Positions 1-60,724 of a stretch of 64,000 nucleotides of DNA are shown here, piece after piece. The notes beneath the pieces were generated by a model. The model was not told where the DNA came from. It saw only the letters and a program-made list of their open reading frames with translations, and did no database searches. Each line of letters opens with the position of its first letter. Within the stretch, counting starts at the first letter, position 1. This DNA comes from a virus, in the UHGV virus genome UHGV-1364187. One strand, given 5' to 3'. The position numbers and the translations under genes were made by a program.

Positions 1-1551
1 ATTAATCTCATCAAATGGTATTGTAACAATACCATCAACATCAGTATATTTATCTATCATAGCAGATAGTTCTGGTGTAAAGTAAATATCATCATCATCT
101 TCTGTTGACAATGAGAATAAGTTTCCTTCTTCATCTCTAACTTTAATCTCACATACAGATTGATTATACTCATAGTTTTCATATTCATTTTCAATATGAA
201 TTTCACTATCAATAATCAATAAAGTGTCTTTTATCTCTATATCATCTCTAATAGATATAAGATTTCCATCTAATATAAAGAAGTCACCAAATTGTTTAAC
301 CCATTTAAGTTCTTTAATTTTCGCTTCTAATAGATGCTTTGCTGATAAAAGTTTTTGAGTCAATTCTGATGATAATAATTCAGCTGCAATCTTACCAATA
401 TTGATATCCCTATTAGTGTATGCAACATCCCCATAACATTTATAACAAATACCATTACCTTCTGAAAATGATTTACATTTAGCAGGAGATCTAAAGTAAA
501 CAGTTTTACCAATAAGATCCATTTCCATTCCTGTTATCATAAACTCTTGTCCATCTGGATAGAATCTATAATATCTAGAGATATATTTCTTCAGCATTTC
601 ATAACTAGTAATAGTTATCTTAACGAAATTTCTTGTACCACAATCATAATTTGGATCTTCATTAAGCTCTGTATCTTGATTATTTAAACCTAATAAACGT
701 GCTAAATGCCCACTATCAGATACATTAGTCTTAGATAATAATTGTGCAGTACGACCACTATATTCCTCAATAGTGTGTTCTGTAGCATTACTTAATCCAC
801 CAACAATATAGTTTGAATTAATAATCTTACTAAAGATCCCACCAACTCCATTTGGTTTAGCACCACCAGCTACAGCAAACTCTCTATGCTGTTTCTTATT
901 AATAGCTTCTCTAGCTTTAAATGAATCTTTATAACAATGATCTTCTGAATTTTTAATAATATCAACAAGTTCATCATTAAGTTGATTTGCTATATTATTA
1001 ACTTCATTTATAGGATATCCAGATAAATCACAATGCATAATATCGTATGCTCTCGGGTTTTCATTCATAAGATCTCTATAATCTTTAAGATTAGCAGTAT
1101 TAGCCAAGAACATACTAAATTCATCTATAGATTTGAATTGATATTCGATATCATCTATGATATTATTTAACCTAATATTATCCATATCTTTTCTATATGG
1201 AATAATAAGATAATTATTGATAAAGTCTGCTATCATGTCAGCTACAAAATCATCTTCAAATACTAGATGTTTTGGTTCGATATGATTTCCTGTCATAACT
1301 ACAAGTTTCCATAATGCTATATTAGTATAACTATCTGGTATTGACAAATCAACATCTGTACCATCGTCAAACACATAAGTGATAAAGTTGGACATTACTT
1401 GATCACTATTAATTCCATCTCTTAATACATTTAAGAGAGAGTTAAAGTAATAATCTACATTATCAGATGTAATATCTTTTGTGTAGATTATTGTTTTCTC
1501 GCCTCTTGTAAAACTTACAAAAGGACCATAGTTTTCTGGATAATCAAACAT
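1..1551 (-). CDS. Phage multisubunit RNA polymerase beta-prime subunit, C-terminal fragment. Partial: the ATG is at 1551..1549 and the ORF runs past the window start.
   Basis: My own reverse-strand translation of 1..1551 (not in the supplied track) contains RSPAKCKSF..GICYKCYGD..INIGKIAAELLSSELTQ, which matches beta-prime region G ([38 protein letters not shown]). It also contains VSDSGHLARLLGL, which matches region H (SGYLTRRLVDV). An RBS, aaaaataggaggg, lies upstream at 1556-1568. Confidence 0.6.
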   Translation of the reverse strand, partial: MFDYPENYGPFVSFTRGEKTIIYTKDITSDNVDYYFNSLLNVLRDGINSDQVMSNFITYVFDDGTDVDLSIPDSYTNIALWKLVVMTGNHIEPKHLVFEDDFVADMIADFINNYLIIPYRKDMDNIRLNNIIDDIEYQFKSIDEFSMFLANTANLKDYRDLMNENPRAYDIMHCDLSGYPINEVNNIANQLNDELVDIIKNSEDHCYKDSFKAREAINKKQHREFAVAGGAKPNGVGGIFSKIINSNYIVGGLSNATEHTIEEYSGRTAQLLSKTNVSDSGHLARLLGLNNQDTELNEDPNYDCGTRNFVKITITSYEMLKKYISRYYRFYPDGQEFMITGMEMDLIGKTVYFRSPAKCKSFSEGNGICYKCYGDVAYTNRDINIGKIAAELLSSELTQKLLSAKHLLEAKIKELKWVKQFGDFFILDGNLISIRDDIEIKDTLLIIDSEIHIENEYENYEYNQSVCEIKVRDEEGNLFSLSTEDDDDIYFTPELSAMIDKYTDVDGIVTIPFDEIN

Positions 1552-1660
1552 TAATATCCCTCCTATTTTTCTTAATATATTAAAGTTAATTCTTGTGTAA
1601 CTTTCAAATATATAATATATGATTTCATTTCATATTACTAAGAAAAAATAAAAGAACGGA

Positions 1661-2366: not shown

Positions 2367-2463
2367 AACTTAAACATCTCCTTTATTATTCTTTTATTCA
2401 ATAGTATAATATAATAATTGAAAATAATATTGGATAGAGTATAAAAACTCTATCCAATATTAA

Positions 2464-3735: not shown

Positions 3736-3760
3736 AATTAAACATCTCCTTTAGATATAA

Positions 3761-3795
3761 TATTATTATTCATTTATATAATATATAATTGAAAT
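3761..3795 (-). promoter_or_regulatory. Conserved phage promoter/leader motif. On the minus strand it reads AATTATATATTATATAAATGAATAATAATATTA, followed by AAAGGAGATGTTT and the ATG.
   Basis: The same roughly 35-nt motif, with small variants, occurs at 2381-2440, 4215-4246, 7489-7523, 9071-9102, 12591-12628, 15423-15475, 18773-18808, 40811-40845, 50607-50647, 56270-56306, 58956-58984 and 60349-60380. Each copy sits 20-50 nt upstream of a minus-strand start codon. Confidence 0.55.
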
Positions 3796-4204: not shown

Positions 4205-4326
4205 CTCCTTTTAATATTATATTCATTTATATAATATATAATTATAATATTTATCAATTTCAATAATATTTGAAAGTATAAATTGTCTCTAACTTATCTA
4301 TAATGATTAAATAAGGAGGAATTAGG

Positions 4327-5367
4327 ATGGTCTTAGAAGAAAATTTAAATGATATGGAAGTTATCAAAAGATACAAGCAATTTTTTAAGGAGATGATTTG
4401 GTTTAATAAACCAAACATATCTGAGCAAGAATTAGAAGATGTAATGAATTGGTCAATACAGAAGAGAATCAAAAATTCATCATTAGAATTATATGATTCT
4501 TATAAGGAAAAACGAGCAGATTCATCAGTATTAGAATGGCTAGAATACTTCTATGCTAATGAACCAATTATAACTCCCAATGGGGTTATGTTTAAAAAAC
4601 ATAATGAAGAGCTTAATCCTGTGAATAAAATGATACAGGGATTCTTAAAAACACGTGCTAAATACAAAAAAGAAATGTTTAAATATCCTAAAGGATCTCG
4701 TGAATTTGAAAAATATAACCTACTTCAACTTCTCTCCAAGATTGATGCTAATAGTATATATGGTTGTTTAGGTAATTGGAGTGCTGTATATTATAACGTA
4801 AATGTTGCTAGTTCAGTTACAGCATGTGGTAAATCTTCTATTTCAGCAGCAGGTTTAGCATTTGAACAGTTCTTAGCAAATAACGTTAAATTTAGAAAGT
4901 TAGACGAAGTTATAGTATTTATTAATCATATCATTAAAGAAAAACCAAATAGAAAATTCAATGATAAAGATATTCTAGATAGAGATATTACAGTAGAAGA
5001 ATGTTTTATAAAAGTAATGTCTACATGTGGTCATGGTTATACTCCTTCTATGGAAGATTGTGAAATCATATGGGATATTATTAGTAAACTTAACAGTGAA
5101 GATCTTAATAGAATATACTATAAGAATAATCTATTAGAATTCTTTGACAATAAAGTAATGACTAATATGGTTATAGAAGTATTAAAGAGACTCAATAAAC
5201 CTTGGATGGATCCGAATAAAGTTCCAAAAGAAATTGAACTTGAAATGGATACAATGTGGGATTTAGTAAGTGAATATGTATTTTATAAATATCAAATCAT
5301 TGATAGACAAGATAGATTAGAGTTTCTTCCAAGAAAAATTACATGTATTATAGACACCGACTCTTTT
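4327..5367 (+). CDS. Family B DNA polymerase, C-terminal (palm/thumb) polypeptide, exon 1
   Basis: Carries motif B (LLQLLSKIDANSIYGCLG, the K..NS.YG pattern) and motif C (IIDTDS). The ORF stops immediately after DTDSFA at the intron boundary. Strong RBS taaggaggaattagg. Confidence 0.8.
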
Positions 5368-5772
5368 GCATAATAAACTGTTTTATTATGTAAATAGGAG
5401 CATTATATAGTAATATATAATGAAAACCCTTTTAATTGCTGGGAAGCCTTAAAGCTCACCTGCCTATATTTTAATGAATATAGGAACGAAAGTAGAAACA
5501 AGTGGTGAGATAGTATATGGTGTAAACCTAAGTACTGCAAACAATGGGTAATCAGCAGCGAAGTTTCTTATAAAGTTATAAGAAGAACGTTCAACGACTA
5601 TCGAAAAGACATGTTTATATAAACATGGAACTGAGTAGAGTACACTCAAGTGAGTGGAAATGGAGGGGGTCTTATTTTATATAAGATCATGATATAGTCT
5701 GCTCACTATGGAAACATAGTGAAGTTCATAAGAGAACTGCATAGAATTAACGACTCTATGTGAACATAAAGG
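5368..5772 (+). ncRNA. Group I self-splicing intron, with no homing-endonuclease ORF, inside the DNA polymerase gene between motif C and KKRY
   Basis: A roughly 400-nt ORF-free segment, GC-richer than its surroundings. A P7-like pairing is visible (ACGACTAT ... ATAGTCT). The core AATCAGCAGCGAAG..AAGAAGAACGTTCAACGACTATC is shared with two other introns in the window. The flanking exons are in the same frame. The exact splice junction is uncertain by about 3 nt. Confidence 0.6.
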
Positions 5773-6849
5773 AATATTTTGAACTTAGATTTTTGGTATA
5801 GATTTATCAAAGATAAAGTAATCGGTATTGATATGAAAATTAAACATGAAATGTATGACATTGCAGAAATCATTAAAGCTGATGAATTTGGTGATAGAGA
5901 AATGATGAAGCCTGCAGAGATAGTAGATATCGAAGATGATTATGATTTCTATGAAGATGAAACAGTAGAAATGGAAAGATTAATCAATCCTGCAAAATTA
6001 GTACCAAATGACTCATTAAGATATTCTATAATAAATATTATAGCATACTTATGTGGTAATATGATTAATGAAGAGATGGTATTATACACAAAACAGAACA
6101 ATTCTTATAGTCCTGATAGACCATGTAGTCTTATTATGAAGAATGAATTCTTATTTAAAAGAGTTTTATTGACAAATGTAAAGAAAAGCTACGCTAGCAT
6201 CATAGAGGTTCAGGAAGGAAATATAGTACCATCTTCCAGTTCATTGGACGTGAAAGGATTACAAATTAGAAAATCAACACTACCAAAAAGAACAAGAGAT
6301 CAATTACAAAGTATATTATATGAAGATATACTAAACTCTGGAGATAATCTCGATCAAAGATGCATACTCAAAGATATTATATTATTAGAAAAACAAATTT
6401 ATAAATCACTTACATCTGGTAGTAAAGAATACTTTAGACCAGCACAAGTTAAAGCTATGGGATCATATGAAAATCCACTAAGAATTTCTGGATTTAAGGG
6501 ATGTGTTGTATGGAATGAGTTAACAGATCTTAATACAGAAAAACATGATCTTAATATTAGAAATGCTGTTGATATTATCAAAGTAGTTTTAAATGCAAAA
6601 ACTGTCGATAAATTAAAAGATTTTCCTGATGTATATGAGAGAGCTGTGAAGCTATTAAACGATCCATCATTTGCAGGGGGAATTAATGGTATATCTGTAC
6701 CATTAGGAGTAGAAACACCAGAGTGGTTATATCAAATTATCGATTATAATACAATTATTAATGATAATTTATCAGTAATGCCATTAGAAAGTGTAGATAT
6801 AATTATTGGAAATTCCAATATAAACTATTCAAATATGGTGCAAATGTAA
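5773..6849 (+). CDS. Family B DNA polymerase C-terminal polypeptide, exon 2
   Basis: Contains the KKRY-type motif (NVKKSYASII) and thumb-like sequence. It is in frame with exon 1 after intron removal. There is an in-frame TAA at 5767, so exon 2 cannot begin before 5770. Confidence 0.7.
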   Translation, partial: NILNLDFWYRFIKDKVIGIDMKIKHEMYDIAEIIKADEFGDREMMKPAEIVDIEDDYDFYEDETVEMERLINPAKLVPNDSLRYSIINIIAYLCGNMINEEMVLYTKQNNSYSPDRPCSLIMKNEFLFKRVLLTNVKKSYASIIEVQEGNIVPSSSSLDVKGLQIRKSTLPKRTRDQLQSILYEDILNSGDNLDQRCILKDIILLEKQIYKSLTSGSKEYFRPAQVKAMGSYENPLRISGFKGCVVWNELTDLNTEKHDLNIRNAVDIIKVVLNAKTVDKLKDFPDVYERAVKLLNDPSFAGGINGISVPLGVETPEWLYQIIDYNTIINDNLSVMPLESVDIIIGNSNINYSNMVQM

Positions 6850-7481: not shown

Positions 7482-7685
7482 CTTTTCATAATATTATTTT
7501 ACACATATATAATATATAATCTAAAATGATTTTACTTAAAAAATAAGTATAGAATTTATAGTTCTATACTTACGAATTGTATACATATCTTGTCAATCTA
7601 TTATAGATAGACAAGATATGCTTTTTCTCCATTTTGTTGTTTACTCTCATATTTTTATCTCCTTTATTTTAGCTTAAAATTATGT

Positions 7686-9020: not shown

Positions 9021-9115
9021 AACTAAACAACTCCTTTAAATTTTTAGTAACATAGACTATTTACAATCATCTATATTCACCTTAATAATATATAAGTGAA
9101 ATATGAGACTTTTAC

Positions 9116-9156
9116 AAAAAAAATAAAAGAAGAGTCCAAATGGACTCTTCTTTATT
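9116..9156. terminator. Bidirectional intrinsic terminator
   Basis: aaataaaagaagagtccaaatggactcttctttattt. Confidence 0.7.
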
Positions 9157-9689: not shown

Positions 9690-10697
9690 TTAAATTGCTA
9701 CTGAAGCTTTAATAGCATCACCACATTTATATCCATTAATCTTAATATCTTCTAGTTTAATATTTCTAATATCTTCGCCTAATAGATCTTTAGTAAATTC
9801 AATCTTAGGTAAGTCGTATAATTCTCTAGATAGATATTCTTTTGCCTGATCAATATGATTTTGGTAAATATGTGTATCGCCAAAATTATATGTCATTGTT
9901 CCAACTTGTAATCCACTAATAGCACCCATCATATGTAAAAAGATTCCATATTCTGCTAAATCAAATGGAACCCCTAGAATACTGTCAGCACTACGTTGAT
10001 TTACAATCATATGTAATTTATCATTGATTACTAAAAACTGGATAGAAAATACACAAGGTGGTAAATCTACATAAGGAACACTAGCAGTATTCCATGAATT
10101 AAGAATAATTCTTCTTGAATCTGATTTACTCTTAATAAGTTTTTGTGTAATATCTAATTGGTCTACAATGTTCACAACGACTTCTTGTTCTTGAGTATTC
10201 ATATTATTCATTTCTACATGTTTATTATACTTCCAAGCATTACCATAGATATCTTCATATACTGTAAGTTCTCTAGATGTAATTTCATCATTAAGAATCT
10301 TTTGTTCAAAGATATCGAGTTGTTCTCTATATAGTTTAGCAAATTCTTCATCCTTATCTTTTAATACAGTCCAATTGTCTGGGAATACTGGTCCTGTATA
10401 TTTTTCATTTTCTGGGCATTTTCCCTCAATATATCTTTTAAATTTCCATTCTGTCCAGATATGTACATTTTGCTCTAATAATGTCTTTAAGTTTTGTTCT
10501 CCATTAATGAACCATAAAAGTTCTTTAATAGCTGTTCTATAAGCAGTTCTTTTTCCAGTAACAATAGGAACACTACCATCTGATAAATCAAATTTCATAC
10601 TATAACCAGGAATACGGATAGTTCCTACTCCAGTTCGGTCTGTGCTAACTTCACCTGTTTCTAAAATAGTTTTAATCATTTCTTTATATTGTTTCAT
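9690..10697 (-). CDS. thyA: Thymidylate synthase (ThyA family)
   Basis: The N-terminus DRTGVGTIRIPGYSMKFDLS matches the ThyA pattern DRTGTGT..FG.QMRFDL. The ELLWF motif is present. The active-site cysteine sits in a DLPPC context (LPPCVFSIQF). Confidence 0.9.
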   Translation of the reverse strand: MKQYKEMIKTILETGEVSTDRTGVGTIRIPGYSMKFDLSDGSVPIVTGKRTAYRTAIKELLWFINGEQNLKTLLEQNVHIWTEWKFKRYIEGKCPENEKYTGPVFPDNWTVLKDKDEEFAKLYREQLDIFEQKILNDEITSRELTVYEDIYGNAWKYNKHVEMNNMNTQEQEVVVNIVDQLDITQKLIKSKSDSRRIILNSWNTASVPYVDLPPCVFSIQFLVINDKLHMIVNQRSADSILGVPFDLAEYGIFLHMMGAISGLQVGTMTYNFGDTHIYQNHIDQAKEYLSRELYDLPKIEFTKDLLGEDIRNIKLEDIKINGYKCGDAIKASVAI

Positions 10698-10750
10698 AAC
10701 TATTAACCTCTCTTTTCTAATGTAATTATATATAAGTTTATGGGTGGTTA

Positions 10751-10790
10751 AAAAAATAAAAAAAAGAAGAGGATTAATCCTCTTCTATAA
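10751..10790. terminator. Intrinsic terminator downstream of ThyA
   Basis: aaaaaaataaaaaaaagaagaggattaatcctcttct. Confidence 0.65.
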
Positions 10791-11494: not shown

Positions 11495-12532
11495 TTACAT
11501 ATGTTTTAATTGATTTAATACTTCTGCTTGAATATCTGATGGGGTTGCTGGTAATGATAATTTTGGTAAAATATCTTCTGGTTTAGCTTCAAGTTTCTCA
11601 ATTAGCTCAATAGCATATTCTCTTTCTAGTAAAGGAACTTCAACTTTAAGATCAAATCTACCACTTCTAGTAACAGCATCGTCTACTCTATCTATATAAT
11701 TTGTTGTTGCTATAAATATTACATCGTTAATAGATGCAATACCATCTAGTACATTAAGTATATCACCAATAACATTCATTGTTTCTTTATTATCATCTGT
11801 AATTGATTCGTCACGTCTACCAACGTAACAATCAATATCTTCTAATACAATTACACATTTTTCTATAGAACCCATATTTCTCAAGTTACTAATTGTTATT
11901 GGTGTTGTTATAACTACTGAGTATTCTAAATAATTAGCAATTGCTTGGATTAATGATGTCTTTCCACCTCCTTTAGGACCATATAAAACTATACCACCTT
12001 TATATGAAATATTGTGTCTACGATAATAATCTTTATTAGAGATCCACATATCTAAATAATCTTTATTTTTTTCTTTACTTGGAGTTACAATATCGTCAAA
12101 TGTCTTAGTTGGTAAATCTAATAAACCATTAAACTCAGTGCTTTTAATTTTACCTTTTCTACACCCAACAGTTATATTATCCTGGATCTCTTTCATATAT
12201 TTTCTAGAATTAATACCAGTTAGTTTACACTTTAAAGCTGACATTGTATCTTTATTATTATTACACATTATTTCACACACTTCAAATTCCATTCTGGTAA
12301 ATTTATATACATTGAAAGAATATTTACCATCTGGTAAGAAGTAAGTTTTTCCATTATCACATGTACATTTAAGAGTATCAAATTTATGAGTATTTTTAAA
12401 TATCCAATCGTATGTAAAATTAAATCCATATCTACTTGCAAGTTTACAGAACTCAATAGTGTATCTATCATTTACTTTCTTGTAAACAATCTTTCCTAAA
12501 CTTACTGTAGCTGCTGTAGCTAAAGATACCAT
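11495..12532 (-). CDS. AAA+ family ATPase
   Basis: Walker A motif GPKGGGKTSL and Walker B motif VIVLEDID, with SRH-like sequence. An N-terminal domain of about 200 aa has no assignable function. Confidence 0.75.
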   Translation of the reverse strand: MVSLATAATVSLGKIVYKKVNDRYTIEFCKLASRYGFNFTYDWIFKNTHKFDTLKCTCDNGKTYFLPDGKYSFNVYKFTRMEFEVCEIMCNNNKDTMSALKCKLTGINSRKYMKEIQDNITVGCRKGKIKSTEFNGLLDLPTKTFDDIVTPSKEKNKDYLDMWISNKDYYRRHNISYKGGIVLYGPKGGGKTSLIQAIANYLEYSVVITTPITISNLRNMGSIEKCVIVLEDIDCYVGRRDESITDDNKETMNVIGDILNVLDGIASINDVIFIATTNYIDRVDDAVTRSGRFDLKVEVPLLEREYAIELIEKLEAKPEDILPKLSLPATPSDIQAEVLNQLKHM

Positions 12533-12639
12533 AATTTCTTTTTTTCATTGATTTTAACATATTATATTTCATAATAAAAAACATCTCCTTTAATATTATT
12601 ATTCAATTATATAATATATAATTAAAACTATTTTACTAC

Positions 12640-12682
12640 AAAAAAATAAAGACTAAGAGATAATACTCTTAGTCTTTATATA
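12640..12682. terminator. Intrinsic terminator
   Basis: aaaaaaataaagactaagagataatactcttagtctttata. Confidence 0.65.
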
Positions 12683-15422: not shown

Positions 15423-15456
15423 ATAGTGAATATAGATCATTCTATATTCACTATAA
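15423..15456. promoter_or_regulatory. Perfect 15-bp inverted repeat TATAGTGAATATAGA-tcat-TCTATATTCACTATA within the promoter region of the Bro-N gene
   Basis: Read directly from the sequence. It overlaps the conserved promoter motif, so it is a candidate operator. Confidence 0.45.
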
Positions 15457-15488
15457 TAATATATAATTGTAAATCGTTTTACTATATT

Positions 15489-16222: not shown

Positions 16223-16639
16223 TTTTTATTTACCCACTTTCATATTTCTTTATGTTTTCTTAGACACTCTATATTTATCAAATATTATATAGTAATAATT
16301 GATATCTTTAACTTAGTATAAATACCATGTTAAAAAAATAAATACTAGAGATTTTACTCTCTAGTATTTATATTATCATTTATGCATTTTAGATTAATGA
16401 TTTATCTTTAATCTTCATCATTTGAATAAGTATCTATATAATATTCATCTTCTATAGAACTTGTATGAACAGTTTCCGTATTTAGTACTTTATCTACTAA
16501 TCTTATACTAATTTTACTAATAGCTTCACTTATTTTCTTAGATACATAATATGTAACTGCTACATATCAAACTAATTTTACTACAAATTTATATCCAGTC
16601 ATAACTTTTTCCATATTAAACTTTTTCATATCTTATCTC

Positions 16640-16903
16640 TCCTTTTTTATTATTTACTACTCTTCGATTTGTTCTTCTGATTCTCTTTTTAATACACTTT
16701 TAATTTTAGATGATATTTTTGTAAAAACTTTCTTAATAAAATCTACACCACTTGTCATCATAACGAATATACTAAGTACGAATGCTGCACCTATCACTGC
16801 ACCAACAATAATCTCTCCAACTACTGTGAAGATGTCCTTATCAATTTTCTTTGTCTAAAGCTTTCTTGTAATCATTTGCAAATTGTACTAACTCTTTTTT
16901 CAT
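16640..16903 (-). pseudogene. Frameshifted small membrane-protein gene. The leader and start are duplicated from the 9020 locus.
   Basis: ATG at 16903 with the same leader as 9020. After 20 codons a frame change is needed to continue into a 62-codon TM-containing frame (DKDIFTVVGEIIVGAVIGAAFVLSIFVMM..). A second small ORF at 16383-16605 carries an in-frame TGA. Confidence 0.35.
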
Positions 16904-16995
16904 AACTAAACAACTCATTTTAATTTTTAATAACATAGACTAATTGTAATCTATATTCATATTGATAATATATAACTAAAATTTTGAATATTTAC

Positions 16996-17035
16996 AAAAA
17001 ATAAAGAAGAGTCTAATGACTCTTCTTTTATTATT
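16996..17035. terminator. Intrinsic terminator
   Basis: aaaaaataaagaagagtctaatgactcttcttttatt. Confidence 0.65.
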
Positions 17036-17050
17036 TATTTTATATCTTTA

Positions 17051-18479: not shown

Positions 18480-18788
18480 TTATCTTTTGCAACATGTTTT
18501 TTTTGGAATATATTTGTATAATATATTATCGTCATCAAGATAATCTAACGTGTTTGACATTAAATTATATCTATCATTTCCTACTGGTTCTTTTGTGATA
18601 GCTATAATAGGTCTATAATATTTATTCTTTGTGTATGCATAAACATTTTCAATTTCTGTTTCTACAAATTCGATACACTTATTAATAAATCCTTCCTTAT
18701 CTTTAATACTTTTTAAATCTTTAATAATTTGCATTGTTAATTCTTTGTTTTCCATAATAAAACATCTCCTTCTAATAATATTATTCAC
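18480..18788 (-). CDS. Hypothetical protein, 102 aa
   Basis: Conserved cassette upstream at 18773-18808. Confidence 0.45.
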   Translation of the reverse strand: MNNIIRRRCFIMENKELTMQIIKDLKSIKDKEGFINKCIEFVETEIENVYAYTKNKYYRPIIAITKEPVGNDRYNLMSNTLDYLDDDNILYKYIPKKTCCKR

Positions 18789-18840
18789 TTATATAATATA
18801 TAATTAAATTTTTTTTTAATCATATATTATTGTAGTGACT

Positions 18841-18925
18841 ATATTAAAGTTTTATTAAACTTCTAACAAGAAAGTAAGGGGCTTTTAAAGGCGTTGACCA
18901 AGAACCCTTAAAAGGTAGATAAGGG
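18841..18925 (+). repeat. 85-bp element containing TTGACC and a TAAGGG/CCCTTA dyad (copy A). An inverted copy lies at 60725..60808.
   Basis: The sequence tttattaaacttctaacaagaaagtaaggggcttttaaaggcgttgaccaagaacccttaaaaggtagataag is about 90% identical to the reverse complement of 60725-60808. Confidence 0.7.
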
Positions 18926-18980
18926 AAGAACAAAGATAAGACTTTAATACAAATACAGATATATAAAAGGAGATAATAAC

Positions 18981-19586
18981 ATGATTAAAAAATTCAAACA
19001 GCAATTACAATTTATGAAGTTAACAAAATTTCTACGTTCCAAAGACATATCAATCTCTAAAAATTCAAATAATGAATATACACTTAAAGATGATACAATT
19101 GTCTTTGGGACATTTACTAAACAACAATTAATGAACGAATTTTACAAAACAATGACAGATTTAAATATGAATAAATCTTTAACCAAAAATATTTCAATAA
19201 CAAATGTATACTTTTATAAACATCTTGAAGTTTTCTTAAAGATATTTAAGTTTGAAATATTATATTCATTATCAGAATCTTCATCAATTCACAAAGCTTA
19301 TTATAATGATGAAGAAATAACTTTTACACAACTTAATGATTGTGTTGGGATATGTAGTAAAGATAGTAAAATAATTGTATTATATAAATACAATGATGAT
19401 AATGGATTTGAACCATATATGTCTGAAGATAATATAATTCCACAACAGGTTAGTAATCTTACGAAATATTATATAAATCAGATTATTATTAGAACATTGA
19501 TAAATACTCTTAAAGAAAATGGTATTGCTATTTATAGCAATACTACATTATTCAAATACAATAATAAAATTATAGAGTTACAATAA
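18981..19586 (+). CDS. Hypothetical protein, 201 aa
   Basis: First gene of a plus-strand operon downstream of the 85-bp repeat element. RBS aaaaggaga. Confidence 0.5.
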   Translation: MIKKFKQQLQFMKLTKFLRSKDISISKNSNNEYTLKDDTIVFGTFTKQQLMNEFYKTMTDLNMNKSLTKNISITNVYFYKHLEVFLKIFKFEILYSLSESSSIHKAYYNDEEITFTQLNDCVGICSKDSKIIVLYKYNDDNGFEPYMSEDNIIPQQVSNLTKYYINQIIIRTLINTLKENGIAIYSNTTLFKYNNKIIELQ

Positions 19587-23192: not shown

Positions 23193-23265
23193 GATTATAC
23201 GTAAATGGAAGAATTATTAATGTTAACTTCTATGTAATAATTTACATAGAAAGGAGACGTAGAAA

Positions 23266-25422
23266 ATGGTTCAACAACAATTTACGTATCAACAGAAAGT
23301 ATACTATGATACTTCTACAACTAATGCATCATTTATACGGATGCATTATTATTTAAAACAATCTGGTAGAACAAATAATATGTTTATGCTGTCTATATTT
23401 GATCCAGATCTTATAGGTATTAATCCTAGAGATCCAAGATTAAATAAGATTATGAAACTTAAAATTTTTAAAGAAGTTAAAGTAAATTTCTGGTATTTCA
23501 TAAGAGAAGTTATTAGGATACCTGACCAAGGTGGTGCTATAGGTAGCGGTAAACAATATGAACTTCATCGTGGAAATATGGCTATGAACTTTGGATTTAT
23601 ACTTAACTGGTGTATGTTTGTAGAGTTTCCTCGACAGAATGGTAAAACGATTAGTGCTGTATGTTGGTATTTGTGGTTATTTAATTTCGGAACAACTAAC
23701 TCTGAAATTATGTTTATTAATAAATCATTCTCTGACTCTAAACTTAACCTTGAACGTCTTAAAGATATTAGAGAAGCACTTCCTGATTATCTAAGAATGG
23801 ATCAACCTATTAGAGATAGAGACGGTAAGCTTATTAAACCAGTATCTAGGGTAGAAACATTAGAGCATATTACTAATGGTAATAAAATTAAAACTCTTGC
23901 ATCAGCAACAAGTGAATCTGTTGCTAATACTAGAGGACGTGGATGTACTCAACCTTGTCAATGGTATGATGAACATGCATTCATACCTCATGTTGATTTA
24001 GTATATAAATCAGCTACGCCTGCATACAAAACAGCATCTCAAAATGCTCGTACTAATGGTAAAAACTATGGTATTCTTATTACAACAACACCTGGTGATT
24101 TGACAACTAAATCTGGTAAAGCATCTAATGCTGTTAGATTAGCAGCTACTCCATTTAATGAGAAATTCTACGATTTACCATTAAATGAATTACAAGAGAT
24201 TATTTCAAGAAATACAGATTCTCCATTTGTATATATTAGATACACATATCAACAACTTGGTAGAGGAGAAGATTGGTTTAGAGAAATTTGTATTCTTATG
24301 CAAAAAGACTGGAGTGCTATTAGACGTGAAGTATTACTTGAATGGTCTACTGCATCTGATAATTCTCCATTTACAAAAGAAGATTTAAATAAAGTAAAAC
24401 AATGGATAGTTCAAGAACCTATTCATACTATGATGATTAGAGGATTCTTTGTAAATATTTATTCTCAAATGGATCCAAGTGTATCCATGTTCCAATATCC
24501 ACCATTAATAGGTGTCGATGTATCTGGTGGATATCAACGAGATTCATCTGCTATTACTATAGTAGATTCAAAAGATACAAAAGTAGTAGGAGATTTAAAT
24601 TATAACTATATTAAACAAGACGATTTAGCTGCAGTTATATATGATCTAGTTACGCTTTATATGCCAACTGCAATTGTAAACATTGAACGAAATGGTGGAT
24701 TTGGTGCTTCTGTATTATCTAAACTTGTAAAAACTAAGATTAAACGAAATTTATATTATGAGATTAAAGATAGAGTAATAGAAGAACGTGTAGTTAATGG
24801 ATCTGTAAATAAAATTAAAAAGAAAGTGAAATGTTATGGATTCGATAATACTAAGAATAGTCGTAATAGATTGATGGATATTCTTAGAAACAGAATGGAT
24901 AATCATAAAGATAAGTTTATATCTCCTATTATATATAGAGAACTGGAAGGACTTATTGTAACAAAAGATGGAAGAATAGATCACTCTACAGAAACTCATG
25001 ATGACCAAGTATTTTCTTATCTATTAGCACTATATATGTGGTATGATGGTAAGAGTATGAAAGAAACTTGGGGATTAGACAAGAGAGAATTATTAACAGA
25101 TGAAGAAAGTGATGAAGTTATTAATGATATTAGTGAAAAAGAATATAATATCATGAAAGAACTAGGTCTAGTTGATAATGAAGTTGTTAAATCTCAATTG
25201 GATAAACTCGATAAGTCTATAACATATGAACAATATAGACAGAAAGAATATGAAGAAGATCAAAAAGCTTTACAACAACTCATTAGAACAAATCCAAGAG
25301 CATTACAAGAATATGCAAGATTAAATGCATTAGATCCAGAAGAATTAAAGATACAAACTAATACTGGAGTATTTGTTGTGCCAGCATCTGTATATGATAT
25401 GAGTCATATAGATGATGAATAA
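23266..25422 (+). CDS. Terminase large subunit
   Basis: N-terminal ATPase P-loop in VEFPRQNGKTISAVCW. C-terminal nuclease motif VDVSGGYQRDSSAITIV. 718 aa, with RBS aaaggagacg. Confidence 0.8.
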   Translation: MVQQQFTYQQKVYYDTSTTNASFIRMHYYLKQSGRTNNMFMLSIFDPDLIGINPRDPRLNKIMKLKIFKEVKVNFWYFIREVIRIPDQGGAIGSGKQYELHRGNMAMNFGFILNWCMFVEFPRQNGKTISAVCWYLWLFNFGTTNSEIMFINKSFSDSKLNLERLKDIREALPDYLRMDQPIRDRDGKLIKPVSRVETLEHITNGNKIKTLASATSESVANTRGRGCTQPCQWYDEHAFIPHVDLVYKSATPAYKTASQNARTNGKNYGILITTTPGDLTTKSGKASNAVRLAATPFNEKFYDLPLNELQEIISRNTDSPFVYIRYTYQQLGRGEDWFREICILMQKDWSAIRREVLLEWSTASDNSPFTKEDLNKVKQWIVQEPIHTMMIRGFFVNIYSQMDPSVSMFQYPPLIGVDVSGGYQRDSSAITIVDSKDTKVVGDLNYNYIKQDDLAAVIYDLVTLYMPTAIVNIERNGGFGASVLSKLVKTKIKRNLYYEIKDRVIEERVVNGSVNKIKKKVKCYGFDNTKNSRNRLMDILRNRMDNHKDKFISPIIYRELEGLIVTKDGRIDHSTETHDDQVFSYLLALYMWYDGKSMKETWGLDKRELLTDEESDEVINDISEKEYNIMKELGLVDNEVVKSQLDKLDKSITYEQYRQKEYEEDQKALQQLIRTNPRALQEYARLNALDPEELKIQTNTGVFVVPASVYDMSHIDDE

Positions 25423-25511
25423 AAGACTAGCTAAGCTAGTCTTTTATTTTTACGTTTTTAATACATATAGAACTTATACATAATCAAATTATAAAATATG
25501 GAGGGATTTTT

Positions 25512-26144
25512 ATGAAAGAATATATATATGGTAATACATGGAAAGAATTAGAGATGATGTTACCAAAAAATGAAAGTTATTATATCATGTTGTATTATAT
25601 GAAGCATCATAAGAATTATAGTATATACATTATGAATGATAATATAGAAGCTCATATATCATATAATAAAGAAGATACAATATATGATAATGCTAAGATT
25701 TTGATGTGGATATGTGATTTATTTAATATAAAATCTATAGGTATATTTGATGAAGATAAGAGTAATCTTGAAAAATTTATAAATGATCTTAATGACAACA
25801 CAAGAAAACTTATATATAAGACTGAAGAAAGTTTTAATATAAATTTCAAGAAAGAAACATTTGTTCATTATTCTATTAGTAAAGATAGTAGTTTTTCTAA
25901 CTATGAGAATACTGTTGATTATATATACAGTAAATTGAAATCGGAATGTAAAGATACAGAACCAAAACATAATCTTGATTTGAAAACGATTCTTAACAAT
26001 CCAACATTAGTTGACACATTATGTGATGAAGATAAAGAAAATATTGTTGATGAAATCTTATGTAATGCTAAATATTTAGCTTACTGGATAGAAGAATCAC
26101 ATCCTATATTAGAAGAAGTTATAGAAAAACTTAAGGAGGATTAG
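25512..26144 (+). CDS. Hypothetical protein, 210 aa
   Basis: ORF with RBS tggaggg. Confidence 0.45.
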   Translation: MKEYIYGNTWKELEMMLPKNESYYIMLYYMKHHKNYSIYIMNDNIEAHISYNKEDTIYDNAKILMWICDLFNIKSIGIFDEDKSNLEKFINDLNDNTRKLIYKTEESFNINFKKETFVHYSISKDSSFSNYENTVDYIYSKLKSECKDTEPKHNLDLKTILNNPTLVDTLCDEDKENIVDEILCNAKYLAYWIEESHPILEEVIEKLKED

Positions 26145-26146
26145 TT

Positions 26147-27229
26147 ATGAAATATGATATGGATTATATGAAGATTAGAAAACTATTAGAAGAAGGAAAG
26201 AAATATATATTTTCTATCACATACAATAAAACAGACTATAGTTGTACTATATTAGGAATGGATAAAAGTGTAGTTGTATCTTTCATTAATGAATCATTTA
26301 AATATGGTGTAACCAAGATGCTTACCGAATGTAAACAGTATATAAGACTTATAGTACTTAATCCAAGTGAATATTCATTAGCTTTATATAAAGCTATTAA
26401 TGAGATGAGTACATTAAAAGATCTTCTTGTATCTGATTCTATTATGGAATCAGTATACGGTAGTTTAGTTATAGATAGAATATCATTAACTAAAAAAGAT
26501 TTAGAATACACTAAAGAAAAATCTATAAACAAAGATTATATATCTTATAAAGAGTTATCAGAAAAGAGTAAAAAAGGGTATAAATACTATGACACTAATA
26601 CTGATGATAAATTGTCAAATAATTTTAAATCTAAAGGTGTTTTAAATTATGAATTACATCAAGTCATTTATGATAAAACACTATTAGAAACATATGACTT
26701 AGAAAGATCTATAGAAGAGTGTAAAAAGAATGTATTTTATTTCTTTAAACGTGTTCTTAAACATGACCTAACGGAATATGAAGTATTACTATTATTTTTA
26801 TATTCATTAGACTTTTCAATTACTGTACATGAATATGATAACATGATATCACGAGATATAAATAATCTAATATCAAATCTTATGATATATGATCATTTAT
26901 TTGGAAATAATAATTTATATGGAATATCATATTCAAATCTAACCGACAATTGTGTAAGTATTATACCTACTATATCAAAATATGTAAAAGATATTAGCAA
27001 ACTCAAAGAGTATATTTCAAAGTATACTTTGAAATATGAATGGCATAATTATACGGCTAAATTAAAATTTGATCAATCTATGAAAATAGAGAAATATATT
27101 ATGAATCATCACCTTGTTAAGAATAAATGTATGAAGTATAAGATTGAACAATTATATGGACTATTTGATGTTCCATATGATGAAATATTAAAACTATTTC
27201 CTAATAAGGAAATCTATATAACAATATAG
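26147..27229 (+). CDS. Hypothetical protein, 360 aa
   Basis: ORF with RBS aaggagga. Confidence 0.5.
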   Translation: MKYDMDYMKIRKLLEEGKKYIFSITYNKTDYSCTILGMDKSVVVSFINESFKYGVTKMLTECKQYIRLIVLNPSEYSLALYKAINEMSTLKDLLVSDSIMESVYGSLVIDRISLTKKDLEYTKEKSINKDYISYKELSEKSKKGYKYYDTNTDDKLSNNFKSKGVLNYELHQVIYDKTLLETYDLERSIEECKKNVFYFFKRVLKHDLTEYEVLLLFLYSLDFSITVHEYDNMISRDINNLISNLMIYDHLFGNNNLYGISYSNLTDNCVSIIPTISKYVKDISKLKEYISKYTLKYEWHNYTAKLKFDQSMKIEKYIMNHHLVKNKCMKYKIEQLYGLFDVPYDEILKLFPNKEIYITI

Positions 27230-27313
27230 AAGAGGTATATTACCTCTTCTATTTATTTTTTATCTTATCCTTAACTTAATTATAATTGAAAACTTATAAA
27301 GGAGGAATATATA

Positions 27314-28063
27314 ATGTCATTTGCAACTCAAAATATGAGTAATTATACTATTCATCAAGAAAATGAAGCATTAAAAGTTGTATCTCATTTGAATGAGATG
27401 TCAATTATTGATATTGTAAAACAAGATTTTATGCAAAGATATGATTTTAGTTTAGTATTACCTATTAATAATTTGCCTTCTATTATTGAACAAACTTTCA
27501 AACAAACAGAAGATACTTATCCAGAAAGTGTTCAAGATTTAGAAAATAGAAAAAATGAATTGTATAGAGTGATATTAGATAATGTTGCTCAATTATGTAA
27601 TGTAGTATTTGATGAAGTTGATGATTCATCATTATATTCATTTACATATTACGCTTATGATTTTCTTATTAGTAACTTCAAACCATATCTTATTTCTTTC
27701 TTTACTAATTTTATCATAAAAGAAAAGAATAATATCTATATTAATATGAACTTATCTATGTATAAGAAAGAAAAGAACTCTTCTACTAAATATGGAAAAT
27801 CTATGTATACTAATACTAAATTAGCTATCATTTCGGCTTATTTAGATTTGGTAATAAACAATATGAGTACATTTGATATTGATTTGGAAACTATACTGTC
27901 TAATGTATATCCAAACAATTCGATCATTACATTATTAGGAAATATACATCCTATTAATAATTTTTACACAGATAATTATATTTCATTAGTGAATACTCCA
28001 TTATTAAGACAATCTATTGTATCTAATATTAGATTTGCCTTACATAATGCTGCTATTAACTAA
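27314..28063 (+). CDS. Hypothetical protein, 249 aa
   Basis: ORF with RBS aaaggagga. Confidence 0.5.
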   Translation: MSFATQNMSNYTIHQENEALKVVSHLNEMSIIDIVKQDFMQRYDFSLVLPINNLPSIIEQTFKQTEDTYPESVQDLENRKNELYRVILDNVAQLCNVVFDEVDDSSLYSFTYYAYDFLISNFKPYLISFFTNFIIKEKNNIYINMNLSMYKKEKNSSTKYGKSMYTNTKLAIISAYLDLVINNMSTFDIDLETILSNVYPNNSIITLLGNIHPINNFYTDNYISLVNTPLLRQSIVSNIRFALHNAAIN

Positions 28064-28083
28064 CTTTTTAGGAGGACATTAAT

Positions 28084-29331
28084 ATGAATGAAGAATTATT
28101 AAAAATGAGAGAAGAAATAGATAAATTACCAGAAGAAGAAAAAATCAAAAAAATAGCAGATAGTATTGGAATGAAAATGGATGATCAAGATATTCAACAT
28201 GCTAAAATGACAGATGAGCAACTAGATGCTATATGTAATGTATTAGCAGATAATAAACCAGAAGTATTAAATGATAGAATGGATTTTGAATCAGAAGAGT
28301 ATAAAGAATATGTAAAACAATTACAATCTTCAGAGCAAAAAGAACATTTAGCTACAGTAGCTGTTAATCCTATTAATGGCGGTGCATTAGTATTAGCTAC
28401 TCATGATGAAGATGAAATAGGATACATAGATAAACCAACAGAAGAAATTGATTTGGTAAAAATATTCGATAAAGAAAAAGAAGAAATTACATTTGATCTA
28501 TGTAAAGAAACATTCGTTAATATCTACGGCATTACAGATAAAGAAGAACAAAAAGTCTTATTTGATGCTATTATGGATGTAGATAATGTAAAATTCGATG
28601 ATCTCCCATCCAAAATCAAAGGTATGGTTATGGGAGCTATTCAAGGTCAAGAAATTGATAATAAAATTATTGACGAATTTACAAAATATCTATTAAACAA
28701 TATGAAAACCGATATTGTCGCTAACAAAGCTGCAACTGTTGATCTTGATAAAGAGATTTCTAAATATAAATCTGAATCTAACAAAATTATGTCAGAAGCA
28801 TTAGAACATAATAGAACTGTATTAGAAAAAGAGCTTTCAAAAATTGCAGATAAAGCTGAACAAGAGGGATTAAAGAAAAAAGCTGCACAATTAAGAAGAT
28901 GCATTAAAGGTTTTGTTGACTCTTATACTTTTGAACCATTATTTAGAGATTGGAAAACATTAAAGATTAAAGGTAAAAGAGTTTCTATTAAAAAGTATCT
29001 AGAAGCGGAATTACCTAACTATAGACAACATATTATGAAATTTGATAATAGATATAGACAAAGTAATAAAAACATTCATAGTTCTGGACTTATTTTACAT
29101 ACATTAAAGAGATGCCTACCAAATGAGTCAGAGCAGGATCTTAAGAAATTTGTAATTTTATTTTGTATGTATTCTTCATTACTAGACGTAAATAAATATG
29201 AAGATCATATTTTCATGTATTATACAATTCATGATATTATTTCTCTTGATGCTATTCCAGATAAATCTATTGGATTGTCAAGAGAGATCTTAGAGAATAT
29301 TAAGAAAGTTATAGATGAAGTTATTAAATAG
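28084..29331 (+). CDS. Hypothetical acidic protein, 415 aa (possibly scaffold-like)
   Basis: Acidic N-terminal half with predicted helices. RBS taggagga. Confidence 0.45.
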   Translation: MNEELLKMREEIDKLPEEEKIKKIADSIGMKMDDQDIQHAKMTDEQLDAICNVLADNKPEVLNDRMDFESEEYKEYVKQLQSSEQKEHLATVAVNPINGGALVLATHDEDEIGYIDKPTEEIDLVKIFDKEKEEITFDLCKETFVNIYGITDKEEQKVLFDAIMDVDNVKFDDLPSKIKGMVMGAIQGQEIDNKIIDEFTKYLLNNMKTDIVANKAATVDLDKEISKYKSESNKIMSEALEHNRTVLEKELSKIADKAEQEGLKKKAAQLRRCIKGFVDSYTFEPLFRDWKTLKIKGKRVSIKKYLEAELPNYRQHIMKFDNRYRQSNKNIHSSGLILHTLKRCLPNESEQDLKKFVILFCMYSSLLDVNKYEDHIFMYYTIHDIISLDAIPDKSIGLSREILENIKKVIDEVIK

Positions 29332-29415
29332 AAAAAGAAGAGAATCTTAAATGATTCTCTTCTTTTTAATTTCTTTAACTACAATGTAATAGATTAAAAC
29401 GAAAGGACTGATAAA

Positions 29416-30138
29416 ATGGGAATGCCTAGTTTTTTAAAGAAAGAAGGACATAGTATAATTTATAATGGTAAAGGAACATTAGTTTTCTTTATACCAACAT
29501 TCTTTTTTTCTAAAGGATATGCTGAATCTATAGGAGAAAATATTAGTTTATTTGGTGTATTTGATTATGCAATATATGATGAAAAAGGTAATATATCTAA
29601 ATCACTTACTAATTTTAAACTACCTACTGTTTTCTTAACAAGACCAAGTAATATGGAAACAAAAAAAGATGTAAAACTTACAAAAAACACTAAACCTCAA
29701 GATTATAGACTTCTTAAATATAAACAAGGAGATTTAGTATTTGTATCTTGTAAACTTCCACAATCTATTGACAATGCTGAAATGTTATTTAAAATGATGA
29801 TTACTGCTGATATGCCTAATACTATTCCATATGATAAGATACATGACTATTGGGAATTGTCTATGGCATTAAATGGAACTAAGTATGGTATATCACAACA
29901 AATATTTGGAATATTTTCATCAGAAGTATTTAGAAAGATTGATGATAAAACTATTCCATTTAGATTATCTGGAGAAAAAGATATGACTAGATATCAAATG
30001 ATTTCTATTAAGATGATACCTAATTTAGTAACACCATTTACAGCATTTATAAGTGAAAACTGGGATGAATCTATGGTATATGCTAGTATGAATAATAATA
30101 AGAAAGAAATCCCTCTAGAGAAAATCATGATGATGTAG
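29416..30138 (+). CDS. Hypothetical protein, 240 aa (tail-module neighbour)
   Basis: ORF immediately upstream of the sheath gene. Confidence 0.45.
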   Translation: MGMPSFLKKEGHSIIYNGKGTLVFFIPTFFFSKGYAESIGENISLFGVFDYAIYDEKGNISKSLTNFKLPTVFLTRPSNMETKKDVKLTKNTKPQDYRLLKYKQGDLVFVSCKLPQSIDNAEMLFKMMITADMPNTIPYDKIHDYWELSMALNGTKYGISQQIFGIFSSEVFRKIDDKTIPFRLSGEKDMTRYQMISIKMIPNLVTPFTAFISENWDESMVYASMNNNKKEIPLEKIMMM

Positions 30139-30201
30139 TTCTTGTTTTCCTAACATGTAAATAATTAGAGCAAGACTCTATCAATAAAGGAGGAATCAAT
30201 T

Positions 30202-35129: not shown

Positions 35130-35202
35130 TGTATTATAATTAACTAGATGTTGCCAAAATAGAATAGTATTAGACTTTTATTAGTCTAATACTATTCCGT
35201 AT

Positions 35203-40794: not shown

Positions 40795-40886
40795 AAAGCA
40801 TCTCCTTTTATATTATTTTATTCATATATATAATATAACTGAAATAAAGATTAGTATACTAAAATGTATACTAATCTTTATTTTTT

Positions 40887-44361: not shown

Positions 44362-44414
44362 CTCTTTTCGTTATTATAGATAAGTTAACGATACAATAAA
44401 AATATAAAGAGAGA

Positions 44415-50563: not shown

Positions 50564-50723
50564 AATAAATTCCTCCTATTTATAAAAGATTATATTTTTT
50601 TAAGTAATATTCATTACTTATACACCTTAATAATATATAATTGAAATTTATATTACTCTGGTATTTTTTCTAATTACAATATAGTTTACTTGCAGTTAAA
50701 GTTTTAATATAAAGAATAGTATA

Positions 50724-53042: not shown

Positions 53043-53563
53043 TAGATATCAATCCTTTCTAGTGTAGAAAAATACATACTATAATGTTTATCCTGTGTTA
53101 CATGATAAGTTTCGTCTGTTATAACCCACTTATCTCTAGTTAATCTATCTGCTGGAAAGTAAGTATCGCCATCAAAGAATTCATCAAATTTTGTTACGAA
53201 AATTCTCTTAGTATAATCTAAGAATTCTCTATATACCCATCCTCCTCCAATAATAAAAATATCATCATCAGGATTTTCACAATCTAATAACAATATATCA
53301 TTTACAGAATGAACAACTTCTACACCAGGAATCTTTATATCTTTATGACTTAATACTATATTTCTTCTATCTGGCAATGGTCTACCAATACTTTCATAAG
53401 TCTTTCTTCCCATCACTACAGTATGACCTGTAGTGATGTCTTTAAAATGTTTTCTATCTTCTCTAACTATTCCCCAAGGTAATTCATTATCTCTACCTAT
53501 TATCATATTTCTAGATATAGCAACAATCATATTAATCATTATAATCTCTCCAATCTTTAACAA
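53042..53563 (-). CDS. folA: Dihydrofolate reductase
   Basis: MINMIVAISRNMIIGRDNELPW...VVMGRKTYESIG is the canonical DHFR N-terminus. Confidence 0.9.
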   Translation of the reverse strand: MLKIGEIIMINMIVAISRNMIIGRDNELPWGIVREDRKHFKDITTGHTVVMGRKTYESIGRPLPDRRNIVLSHKDIKIPGVEVVHSVNDILLLDCENPDDDIFIIGGGWVYREFLDYTKRIFVTKFDEFFDGDTYFPADRLTRDKWVITDETYHVTQDKHYSMYFSTLERIDI

Positions 53564-53985
53564 TATATCCAGGAATAAATGTAGCTGGAATATTATTTGG
53601 TTTTATTTCTGCTGGTACAAGACAATTATTATATAATGCTCTTTCTTGCTCCAACATTATTTGAGCTGGAGTGTACATTCCTTCCTTATTAGGAGCTATA
53701 TTATTTGTATCTATAGCTGGAACAAAATATGCTGGTCTTATTCTCTGAACTAATGTCTTCTTAAATACCATTCTTAAGCCTATAGCTTTAAGATAAGTAT
53801 GCATAATTTGTGCAGTTATATTATTAGTTTCATTATCTATTTGTACATCCACGTTATATGGATCATCAGTAAGAATATTCTTAGCTAATCTTCTACCATG
53901 TGTACTAGCACTATTGATAAGTAGCATTACTAATAATAACTCAGCATCTACGTGCATTAAATTTGAAGCTTCCATAGACCCACCA
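53532..53985 (-). CDS. RNA polymerase beta subunit C-fragment, exon 2
   Basis: GGSMEASNLM..INSASTHGRRLAKNILTDD..LKAIGLRMVF parallels the beta C-terminus GGQRFGEMEV..SDDVNGRTKMYKNIVDG..LKEIRSLGINI. Confidence 0.55.
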
Positions 53986-56219: not shown

Positions 56220-56301
56220 TGTTTCTTCTCCTCCTTGAATGTTTAATATATGATAGATATAAGAAAAAGTTCATTATATCTATCATATATATAATATATA
56301 A

Positions 56302-56763
56302 TTATGCGACGTTTTGGATCATAGATAATATGTCATCTGTAGATGATGTTAACCCTACTTCATCTTCTTCTGGTTCTTCATAAGTATCAGATAGCATAGA
56401 TTTCATCTCTTCTAAGACAATTGTATTAAATACTGATCTAAACTCTGAGTCTGTATTAAGTTTATTCTTAAATTGTTTTTGAGAGAATTTCATATCACTT
56501 CTATCACCTAGGTACAAATATGCACCTGCACCATTAAGAACTCCACGTTGTTTTAAGAACATAAACATTGATAAATCTGCATCAAATCCATCACTTTGAC
56601 TAAATACTAATGGAACAGATTGACCAGCTTTATTTGTTCTTGATTTAACAAGTGTTACCTCTGTAATGTTTCCGTCTAAGTCGAATACTTCTCCTTCTTT
56701 TAACTTAGATCCATCATCAAATCTAATAATATTATTTGCTAAGTATATAGGTGTATTGCCGCC
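56302..56763 (-). CDS. UvsX/RecA-family recombinase, exon 2
   Basis: GGNTPIYLANNIIRFDDGSKLKEGEVF..VTLVKSRTNKAGQSVPLVF parallels UvsX GGGTGPMYSADTVFIIGKRQIKDG..VEKSRTVKEKSKF and RecA TTGGNALKFYASVRLD. Confidence 0.6.
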   Translation of the reverse strand, partial: GGNTPIYLANNIIRFDDGSKLKEGEVFDLDGNITEVTLVKSRTNKAGQSVPLVFSQSDGFDADLSMFMFLKQRGVLNGAGAYLYLGDRSDMKFSQKQFKNKLNTDSEFRSVFNTIVLEEMKSMLSDTYEEPEEDEVGLTSSTDDILSMIQNVA

Positions 56764-58936: not shown

Positions 58937-59004
58937 ATATAAAATCTCCTTTCTAAATATTTATATTCAATAATATAATATATGATTAAAATTTAGTTTA
59001 ATAT

Positions 59005-60238: not shown

Positions 60239-60381
60239 AATAAAAATCCCTCCTAAAATATTATATATTATATAATCATGTGTTATAATATATTTTGAAA
60301 TTTAACACATGATAAGATTAGATAATAGATTAAGCTCTATTATCTAATCTTCATTCACTATTATAATATATAATTATAATT

Positions 60382-60718: not shown

Positions 60719-60724
60719 TATATT

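Follow-up and report, generated by a model that had tools for sequence, protein, structure and literature searches.

A recurrent intergenic motif in an uncultured gut jumbo phage is probably an early promoter of the AR9 type

Introduction

What is the AT-rich sequence that lies just upstream of the minus-strand gene starting at position 3735 in the virus genome UHGV-1364187, and why does it recur in front of so many other genes? The original prediction was made from the letters of a 64,000-nt stretch of this genome, here called the window. It described a 45-nt block of promoter, leader, and ribosome-binding site (RBS) reused before at least a dozen minus-strand genes, and took it for a phage-class promoter, perhaps read by a phage RNA polymerase (RNAP). 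The window belongs to a 256.5-kb (256,505 bp) uncultured jumbo phage from a gut metagenome, and genes identical to those of the window are also found on short contigs of other gut samples. The phage encodes terminase, tail sheath, portal, a split family-B DNA polymerase, NAD ligase, and a tubulin-like protein. Its closest cultured relatives, at about 30% identity, are jumbo phages of Staphylococcus, Listeria, and Bacillus (AR9/PBS1). A megablast of 20 kb found no close relatives among GenBank phages, and a peptide-pattern scan of IMG/VR with its RNAP beta-C protein found none either.

The cultured relatives provide a useful reference. In AR9, 41 early start sites were mapped by differential RNA-seq and primer extension, giving the early consensus AAATATATATTAT-(6N)-G(+1) (PMC5312081). 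Early transcription in AR9 is independent of new protein synthesis (PMC5312081), and its authors therefore assigned it to an RNAP that is injected with the virion (PMC5312081; review, PMC7598289). In the Staphylococcus jumbo phage MarsHill, a motif search led to the prediction of a TATATTAT motif before 29 genes (bioRxiv 10.1101/2020.12.14.422802).

Results

A motif of about 28 nt follows gene orientation

The minus-strand sequence over 3740-3795 is caATTATATATTATATAAATGAATAATAATATTAtatctAAAGGAGATGTTTaattATG, in agreement with the earlier description. When candidate sites are aligned on TATATTAT, the recurrent core is about 28 nt long, tttcAATTATATATTAT-(5N)-T-G(+1)-AATA. The motif is real, though smaller than the 45-nt block first described and present at more places. 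All 15 minus-strand sites agree at positions -15 to -7, -1, and +1, and the information content of the alignment is about 22.7 bits relative to an AT-rich background. Since the window has a G+C content of only 26%, AT-rich look-alikes are common and statistics are required. The pattern we tested, ATATATTAT-N6-G, came from the literature and was not derived from the window. It matches 14 times in the window, against 2.7 times (maximum, 7) in dinucleotide shuffles; TATATATTAT-N6-G matches 11 times, against 0.98 (maximum, 3). All 14 ATATATTAT-N6-G matches fall in intergenic sequence, which makes up 12% of the window, and are oriented as the next gene (P about 1e-13). Unbiased k-mer counts in upstream regions also rank words of the motif at the top, beside terminator T-runs and the RBS. 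Together with two one-base variants (2399 and 40823), the pattern matches make up 16 sites, 15 on the minus strand and one on the plus strand, and every copy is intergenic and points in the same direction as the next gene (Table 1).

Twelve of the 13 genes originally listed own a true site; for the gene at 60238, the site is the one at 60356 and not the look-alike adjacent to the gene. The list was also incomplete, having overlooked 1605, 16958, and the plus-strand site 18837. The full 33-nt consensus first proposed fits, with three mismatches or fewer, only 3758-3790, 7489-7521, 12591-12623, and 18773-18805; it has no such fit in shuffles. From the motif to the start codon the span is 29-150 nt across the 16 sites. 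Measured from the putative +1 to a start codon preceded by a Shine-Dalgarno sequence, the distance is 29-64 nt at 13 sites and 118-150 nt at the other three. One candidate start was rejected: the ATG at 12572, upstream of the AAA ATPase gene, is preceded by a Shine-Dalgarno sequence, yet it is out of frame with the 345-aa open reading frame (ORF) starting at 12532. An A7 run lies between 12572 and 12532 on the minus strand, and AAA ATPase orthologues are 13-16 residues longer, which suggests a homopolymer frameshift or an assembly error at the start of this gene (12532-12572).

We then added flanks taken from the source contig (ENA ERZ27229639 k119_250412), about 8 kb to the left of the window and about 10 kb to its right. 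These 18 kb hold five further sites, three on the minus strand at the left and two on the plus strand at the right, all following gene orientation. The two right-flank sites, 65506 and 66908, precede plus-strand genes that adjoin the PIF1-helicase and gyrase genes. Since plus-strand sites stand before plus-strand genes, the motif tracks gene orientation and not strand. The idea that it occurs only before minus-strand genes is therefore a good description of 15 of the 16 sites in the window, but it fails at 18837 inside it and at 65506 and 66908 just beyond.

Table 1. Predicted early-promoter sites and associated elements. Positions are those of the window, except for hairpins in relatives, which are given by locus.
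Feature	Position	Strand	Putative +1 G	Remarks
Early promoter upstream of 3735	3767..3794	-	3771	Spans -23 to +5; PWM score 33.8 bits, best in window; ATG at 3735 lies 36 nt downstream
Short AT-rich leader	3736..3770	-		Extended Shine-Dalgarno-like AAAGGAGATGTTT at 3740-3752; ends at ATG of 208-aa gene
Early promoter	1601..1628	-	1605	Upstream of non-virion RNAP beta'-C gene (AR9 g154 homologue); late-type AACT-N6-TA downstream
Early promoter variant	2395..2422	-	2399	TATATTAT core intact, upstream half displaced by one base
Terminator hairpin	2425-2462			Precedes early promoter variant 2395..2422
Early promoter	4220..4247	-	4224	ATG at 4195 lies 29 nt downstream
Early promoter	7498..7525	-	7502	Likely start codon is ATG at 7469
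Complete cassette	9021..9153	-	9078	Terminator hairpin 9126-9153, promoter, 5' hairpin leader; RBS AAAGGAGTTGTTT, then 63-aa ORF
Early promoter	12600..12627	-	12604	Upstream of AAA+ ATPase gene; preceded by terminator 12646-12679
Early promoter	15445..15472	-	15449	Predicted transcript opens with hairpin at +1
Second copy of the 9078 cassette	16895..17028	-	16958	Terminator 17003-17028; degraded Shine-Dalgarno, AAAATGAG; only a short ORF downstream
Early promoter	18782..18809	-	18786	ATG at 18755 lies 31 nt downstream
Early promoter	18814..18841	+	18837	Sole plus-strand site in window; gene at 18981 lies 144 nt downstream
Early promoter variant	40819..40846	-	40823	One base shorter 5' of TATATTAT core; ATG at 40794 lies 29 nt downstream
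Early promoter	50619..50646	-	50623	Heads operon whose last gene is non-virion RNAP beta-N (47544-49265)
Early promoter	56280..56307	-	56284	Serves non-virion RNAP beta-C gene (54442-56220); leader hairpin GATAG...CTATC from +1
Early promoter	58964..58991	-	58968	ATCATATATTAT variant; upstream of 308-aa gene
Early promoter	60352..60379	-	60356	Tubulin-like gene 118 nt downstream; strong 5' hairpin follows
Leader hairpins at +1	56250-56284, 60310-60356, 15428-15449	-		Stable; in long-leader early transcripts
beta-C leader hairpins in relatives	L012:9932, L013:9940, L014:9939, L016:9924			
AR9 gp125 homologue (virion RNAP subunit)	29416..30138	+		Late-type promoter motif upstream
Late-type motif, examples	23200-30200	+		
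Late-type motif, examples	35130-35170, 44360-44400, 10720-10760	-		

The motif closely matches the AR9 early promoter

We compared the window sites with the annotated promoters of AR9. The two sets align base for base, and the ATATATTAT block, the spacer, and the G are identical. As in AR9/PBS1, ATATATTAT occupies -15 to -7 and is followed by a 6-nt spacer and G at +1, AA stands at -19/-18, and there is no -35 element. The sites differ in that position -17 is T in the window phage and A in the AR9 consensus, and in that only the window phage conserves T(-1) and the AATA of +2 to +5. A position weight matrix (PWM) built from the window sites alone retrieves six of nine annotated AR9 early promoters in a 50-kb stretch.

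The genes behind the motif are similar, too. Three homologues of non-virion RNAP subunits are encoded, corresponding to AR9 g089 (beta-C), g105 (beta-N), and g154 (beta'-C, at window positions 1-1551 and beyond), and the early motif precedes all three, beta-N as a member of an operon. AR9 carries annotated early promoters at matching positions for g154 and g087-g089. For g154 the early promoter is about 55 nt upstream, and in the window homologue the motif is 54 nt upstream; AR9 g089 lies two genes 3' of an annotated early promoter, and the motif is 64 nt upstream of its homologue here. Also as in AR9/PBS1, the motif is found before AAA ATPase and replication genes and is missing from virion genes. 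The proposal of a phage-class promoter gains from a match to a promoter mapped by differential RNA-seq and from a genome encoding AR9-type multisubunit RNAPs.

The putative virion enzyme itself is represented by one gene. A gp125-like protein is 25% identical to its AR9 counterpart over the full length (E = 5e-23), and its gene has the same gene order and directly precedes the sheath gene. In the AR9 transcriptome paper, gp125 is counted among the virion RNAP subunits (PMC5312081). In the 82 kb examined, this is the one subunit found of five expected, with the intron-split AR9 g078 left out as a query; Pfam and PHROG scans of the unannotated window proteins did not find the remaining ones.

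Next, we turned to related genomes. Through the protein database and contig look-ups we reached the syntenic loci of five relatives, with beta-C identities of 40-65%. Each of them has the motif in orthologous intergenic positions, namely upstream of the tubulin-like gene and of beta-C, after the ligase, and beside the PIF1 helicase. Orthologous sites retain it in L012, L013, L014, L015, L016, and L018. Downstream of the conserved motif, the leaders vary among relatives in sequence and in length, including indels.

Could host RNAP read these sites as sigma-A promoters that have a -10 element only? It would then recognize TATTAT at -12 to -7, and transcription would begin at the G. The hexamer is a 5/6 match to TATAAT that includes the A of position 2 and the T of position 6, and its distance from the G is canonical. 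However, the best TTGACA match averages 2.6/6 at the sites and 2.64 at random positions, bearing out the earlier remark that a -35 element is absent. A TG extension is absent as well, positions -15/-14 always being AT, and sigma-70-like sites are not enriched, with 190 in the window and 188 in shuffles. Conservation covers positions -19 to -7 as well as T(-1) and G(+1), well beyond a -10 hexamer, and Bacillus and Staphylococcus phages share it; this is in line with the earlier view that the motif is too long and too conserved for a generic sigma-A -10 element. Finally, the AR9 promoter class is read without host RNAP (PMC5312081, PMC7598289). We consider recognition by host sigma-A improbable. 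The motif is most probably an early promoter of a jumbo phage that transcribes with its own multisubunit RNAPs.

Structural genes carry a different motif

The original prediction noted that the plus-strand morphogenesis genes lack the motif and suggested a temporal class. Indeed, the structural genes bear an AR9-like late motif instead. AACW-N6-TA occurs upstream in the sense orientation at 28 of 78 genes and in the antisense orientation at 2 of 78; its full form is tAAC(T/A)-(6N)-TAat. It agrees with the AR9 late consensus, AACA-(6N)-TA/G (PMC5312081). The bearers include terminase, sheath, the minus-strand portal gene, and the gp125-like gene, and the early motif is missing from all four. 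In some genes, among them beta'-C and the tubulin-like gene, early and late motifs stand in tandem, as they do in the "continuously expressed" genes of AR9 (PMC5312081).

Leaders, hairpins, and duplicated blocks

The promoters were said to be followed in five cases by an identical leader. AAAGGAGATGTTT does have five exact copies (2384, 3752, 4211, 12591, and 14639), and it resembles an extended Shine-Dalgarno sequence. Four of them lie behind the motif; the fifth, 14639, has no promoter motif upstream. Other transcripts would begin differently. In five phages a hairpin in the beta-C leader has the predicted +1 as its exact starting point; its base, GATAG...CTATC, is common to all five, and the upper stems differ. 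Hairpins that begin at the G give indirect support to this nucleotide as the putative start site. A stem-loop at the 5' terminus is a known stabilizer of mRNA in Firmicutes.

Upstream, terminator-like hairpins lie directly 5' of the promoters 2399, 9078, 12604, and 16958, and a T-run of at least 5 is found within 90 nt at 8 of 16 sites. In addition, we observed an element of about 80 nt, TTATTAAACTTCTAACAA...GGGGCTTTTAAAGGCGTTGAC...CCCTTAAAAG..., that occurs twice in 5' leaders, at 18850-18930 on the plus strand and 60700-60790 on the minus strand, with about 93% identity. No Rfam family matches it, and exact copies of its 21-nt core are absent from the loci of the relatives. The leader 18837-18985, which holds the plus-strand copy, folds with z = -2.9.

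Reuse of whole blocks had been taken to imply recombination between gene starts. The most extensive case is the pair 9078/16958, which shares about 150 nt consisting of a terminator hairpin, the promoter, a leader hairpin, and the RBS. The similarity ends at the start codon, the downstream ORFs are unrelated, and the Shine-Dalgarno sequence of 16958 is degraded. In relative L012, a 270-aa accessory gene that is absent from all other genomes compared lies between two promoter copies, and the window phage has a single promoter at this place. Seven short-leader promoters resemble one another solely between about -24 and the ATG, and outside this span the resemblance is lost. These duplicated whole blocks lend limited support to the recombination idea. 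As the cause of reuse, however, recombination does not suffice: an AAA ATPase orthologue (56% identical) in a relative retains the promoter together with the AAAGGAGATGTTT leader and RBS, and part of the repetition is therefore due to selection.

One could go further and regard the blocks mainly as repeated recombination modules in which the promoter-like sequence is incidental. Cassettes duplicated in full before unrelated ORFs, similarity bounded at -24 and at the ATG, and the accessory gene of L012 between two promoter copies would all fit. But the core is kept at orthologous sites before conserved essential genes in phages that are 40-65% identical, and it matches the experimentally mapped AR9 promoter. 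A role in recombination is also compatible with promoter function and secondary to it, and we find this reading very unlikely. Equally implausible is that a dimeric DNA-binding regulator uses the near-palindrome TTATATA-T-TATATAA as its operator and that the sequence is not itself a promoter. Self-complementarity of the 15-nt core and the scores that strong sites also reach on the other strand would fit, but conservation is asymmetric (-19 to -7 nearly invariant, the mirror positions -6 to -2 variable), the sites are strictly gene-oriented with a fixed G at +1, and the downstream half of the palindrome is missing in AR9 promoters.

Other features of the genome

Some genes of the window are, or appear to be, interrupted. 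A group I intron at 5377-5721 on the plus strand (Rfam RF00028, 81.6 bits), the sole Rfam match at the gathering threshold, divides the family-B DNA polymerase gene into 4327-5373 and 5779-6849. Two G+C-richer inserts are located on the minus strand. One, 53994-54441, apparently splits RNAP beta-C into 592 aa and a 153-aa ORF, compared to about 740 aa in relatives. The other, 56767-57111, apparently splits a UvsX-like recombinase (57112-57909 and 56302-56766). Rfam E-value searches of 53900-57200 and 18750-19000 gave no match, and the two inserts may be introns of an unmodelled type.

The tubulin/FtsZ-like protein (59051-60238, minus strand) has a weak Pfam match and an early promoter upstream, and it is syntenic and conserved in relatives. 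The phage also encodes a thymidylate-synthase-family (ThyA-family) protein (9690-10697) and a dihydrofolate reductase (DHFR; 53042-53539), both on the minus strand. A 295-aa minus-strand protein at 12683-13570 matches the alpha-amylase catalytic domain (Pfam PF00128, E = 3e-12), not a usual find in a replication-gene region of a phage. After the degraded copy of the 9078 cassette, 16223-17050 consists of 828 nt without a long ORF, only short interrupted frames, and may represent decayed genes. No tRNAs were found.

Discussion

The probable early promoter described here belongs to a well-described class and is an expected feature of this phage group, and the original reading of it holds in its main points. 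By homology to AR9, at about 25-30% protein identity, we infer that the G would be the transcription start, that a virion RNAP (vRNAP) would be the reader, and that expression would be early. The sequence of events would then be as follows. The virion-packaged vRNAP would enter the cell along with the DNA and recognize an AT-rich element of about 13 nt centred near -12 (AATTATATATTAT, -19 to -7). Initiation would take place at the invariant G, six bases further downstream, with neither a -35 element nor a host sigma factor involved. The gp125-like protein would belong to this enzyme. Early transcripts would carry the genes for the non-virion RNAP subunits and for proteins of replication and nucleotide metabolism, along with many small ORFs. 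Most would open either with a short AT-rich leader and an extended Shine-Dalgarno sequence or with a hairpin at the 5' end. The separate motif AACW-(6N)-TA would serve the late (virion) genes.

The likeness to other phages is graded. Apart from the few promoter positions that differ from AR9, identity between the RNAP proteins is only about 25-30%, and the window phage, whose promoters are predicted, would have a gut bacterium as its host. With the MarsHill group, the window phage shares an AT-rich motif, the TATATTAT core, and membership in the AR9-related clade, and promoters are predicted in both; the host and lineage differ, and the likeness refers to the TATATTAT core. Virion RNAP promoters of the phiKZ type (PMC7598289) likewise have about 10 conserved AT-rich nucleotides near -10 and are read by an injected multisubunit RNAP. 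Their consensus is a different one, however, and phiKZ-like phages form a phage nucleus, making this likeness conceptual and not one of sequence.

Another difference from AR9 may lie in the DNA itself. Cultured members of the AR9 clade carry uracil DNA. Since the window phage encodes a ThyA-family protein and DHFR, its DNA may hold T or a modified base rather than the U of AR9, and in this case the chemistry of promoter recognition may differ from that in AR9.

The duplicated blocks resemble the PeSL cassettes of T4-like phages (PMC2839356, PMC4122927), in which a terminator stem-loop and an early promoter lie between small early ORFs. Like PeSLs, the units are duplicated before unrelated genes, and in a relative they flank an accessory gene. 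Unlike them, they do not appear to use host sigma-70 early promoters. PeSLs are also known from an indel series and circular intermediates, whereas the window phage offers one cassette pair and one flanked gene. It is conceivable, if doubtful, that terminator-promoter-leader-RBS blocks are PeSL-like modules that shuttle small accessory early genes among AR9-related jumbo phages. If true, the shuffling of mobile regulatory cassettes would extend from sigma-70-dependent T4-like phages to phages with a virion RNAP.

Sequence alone assigns early and late regulatory classes to the genes of an uncultured 256-kb gut jumbo phage. The ATATATTAT-N6-G core is nearly unchanged across a large metagenomic clade whose RNAPs share only about 30% identity with the AR9 enzymes. 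Invariant and variable positions from several lineages indicate which bases are probably important for a virion RNAP that works without sigma, and if the DNA of the phage does contain T, promoter recognition apparently has no need for uracil.
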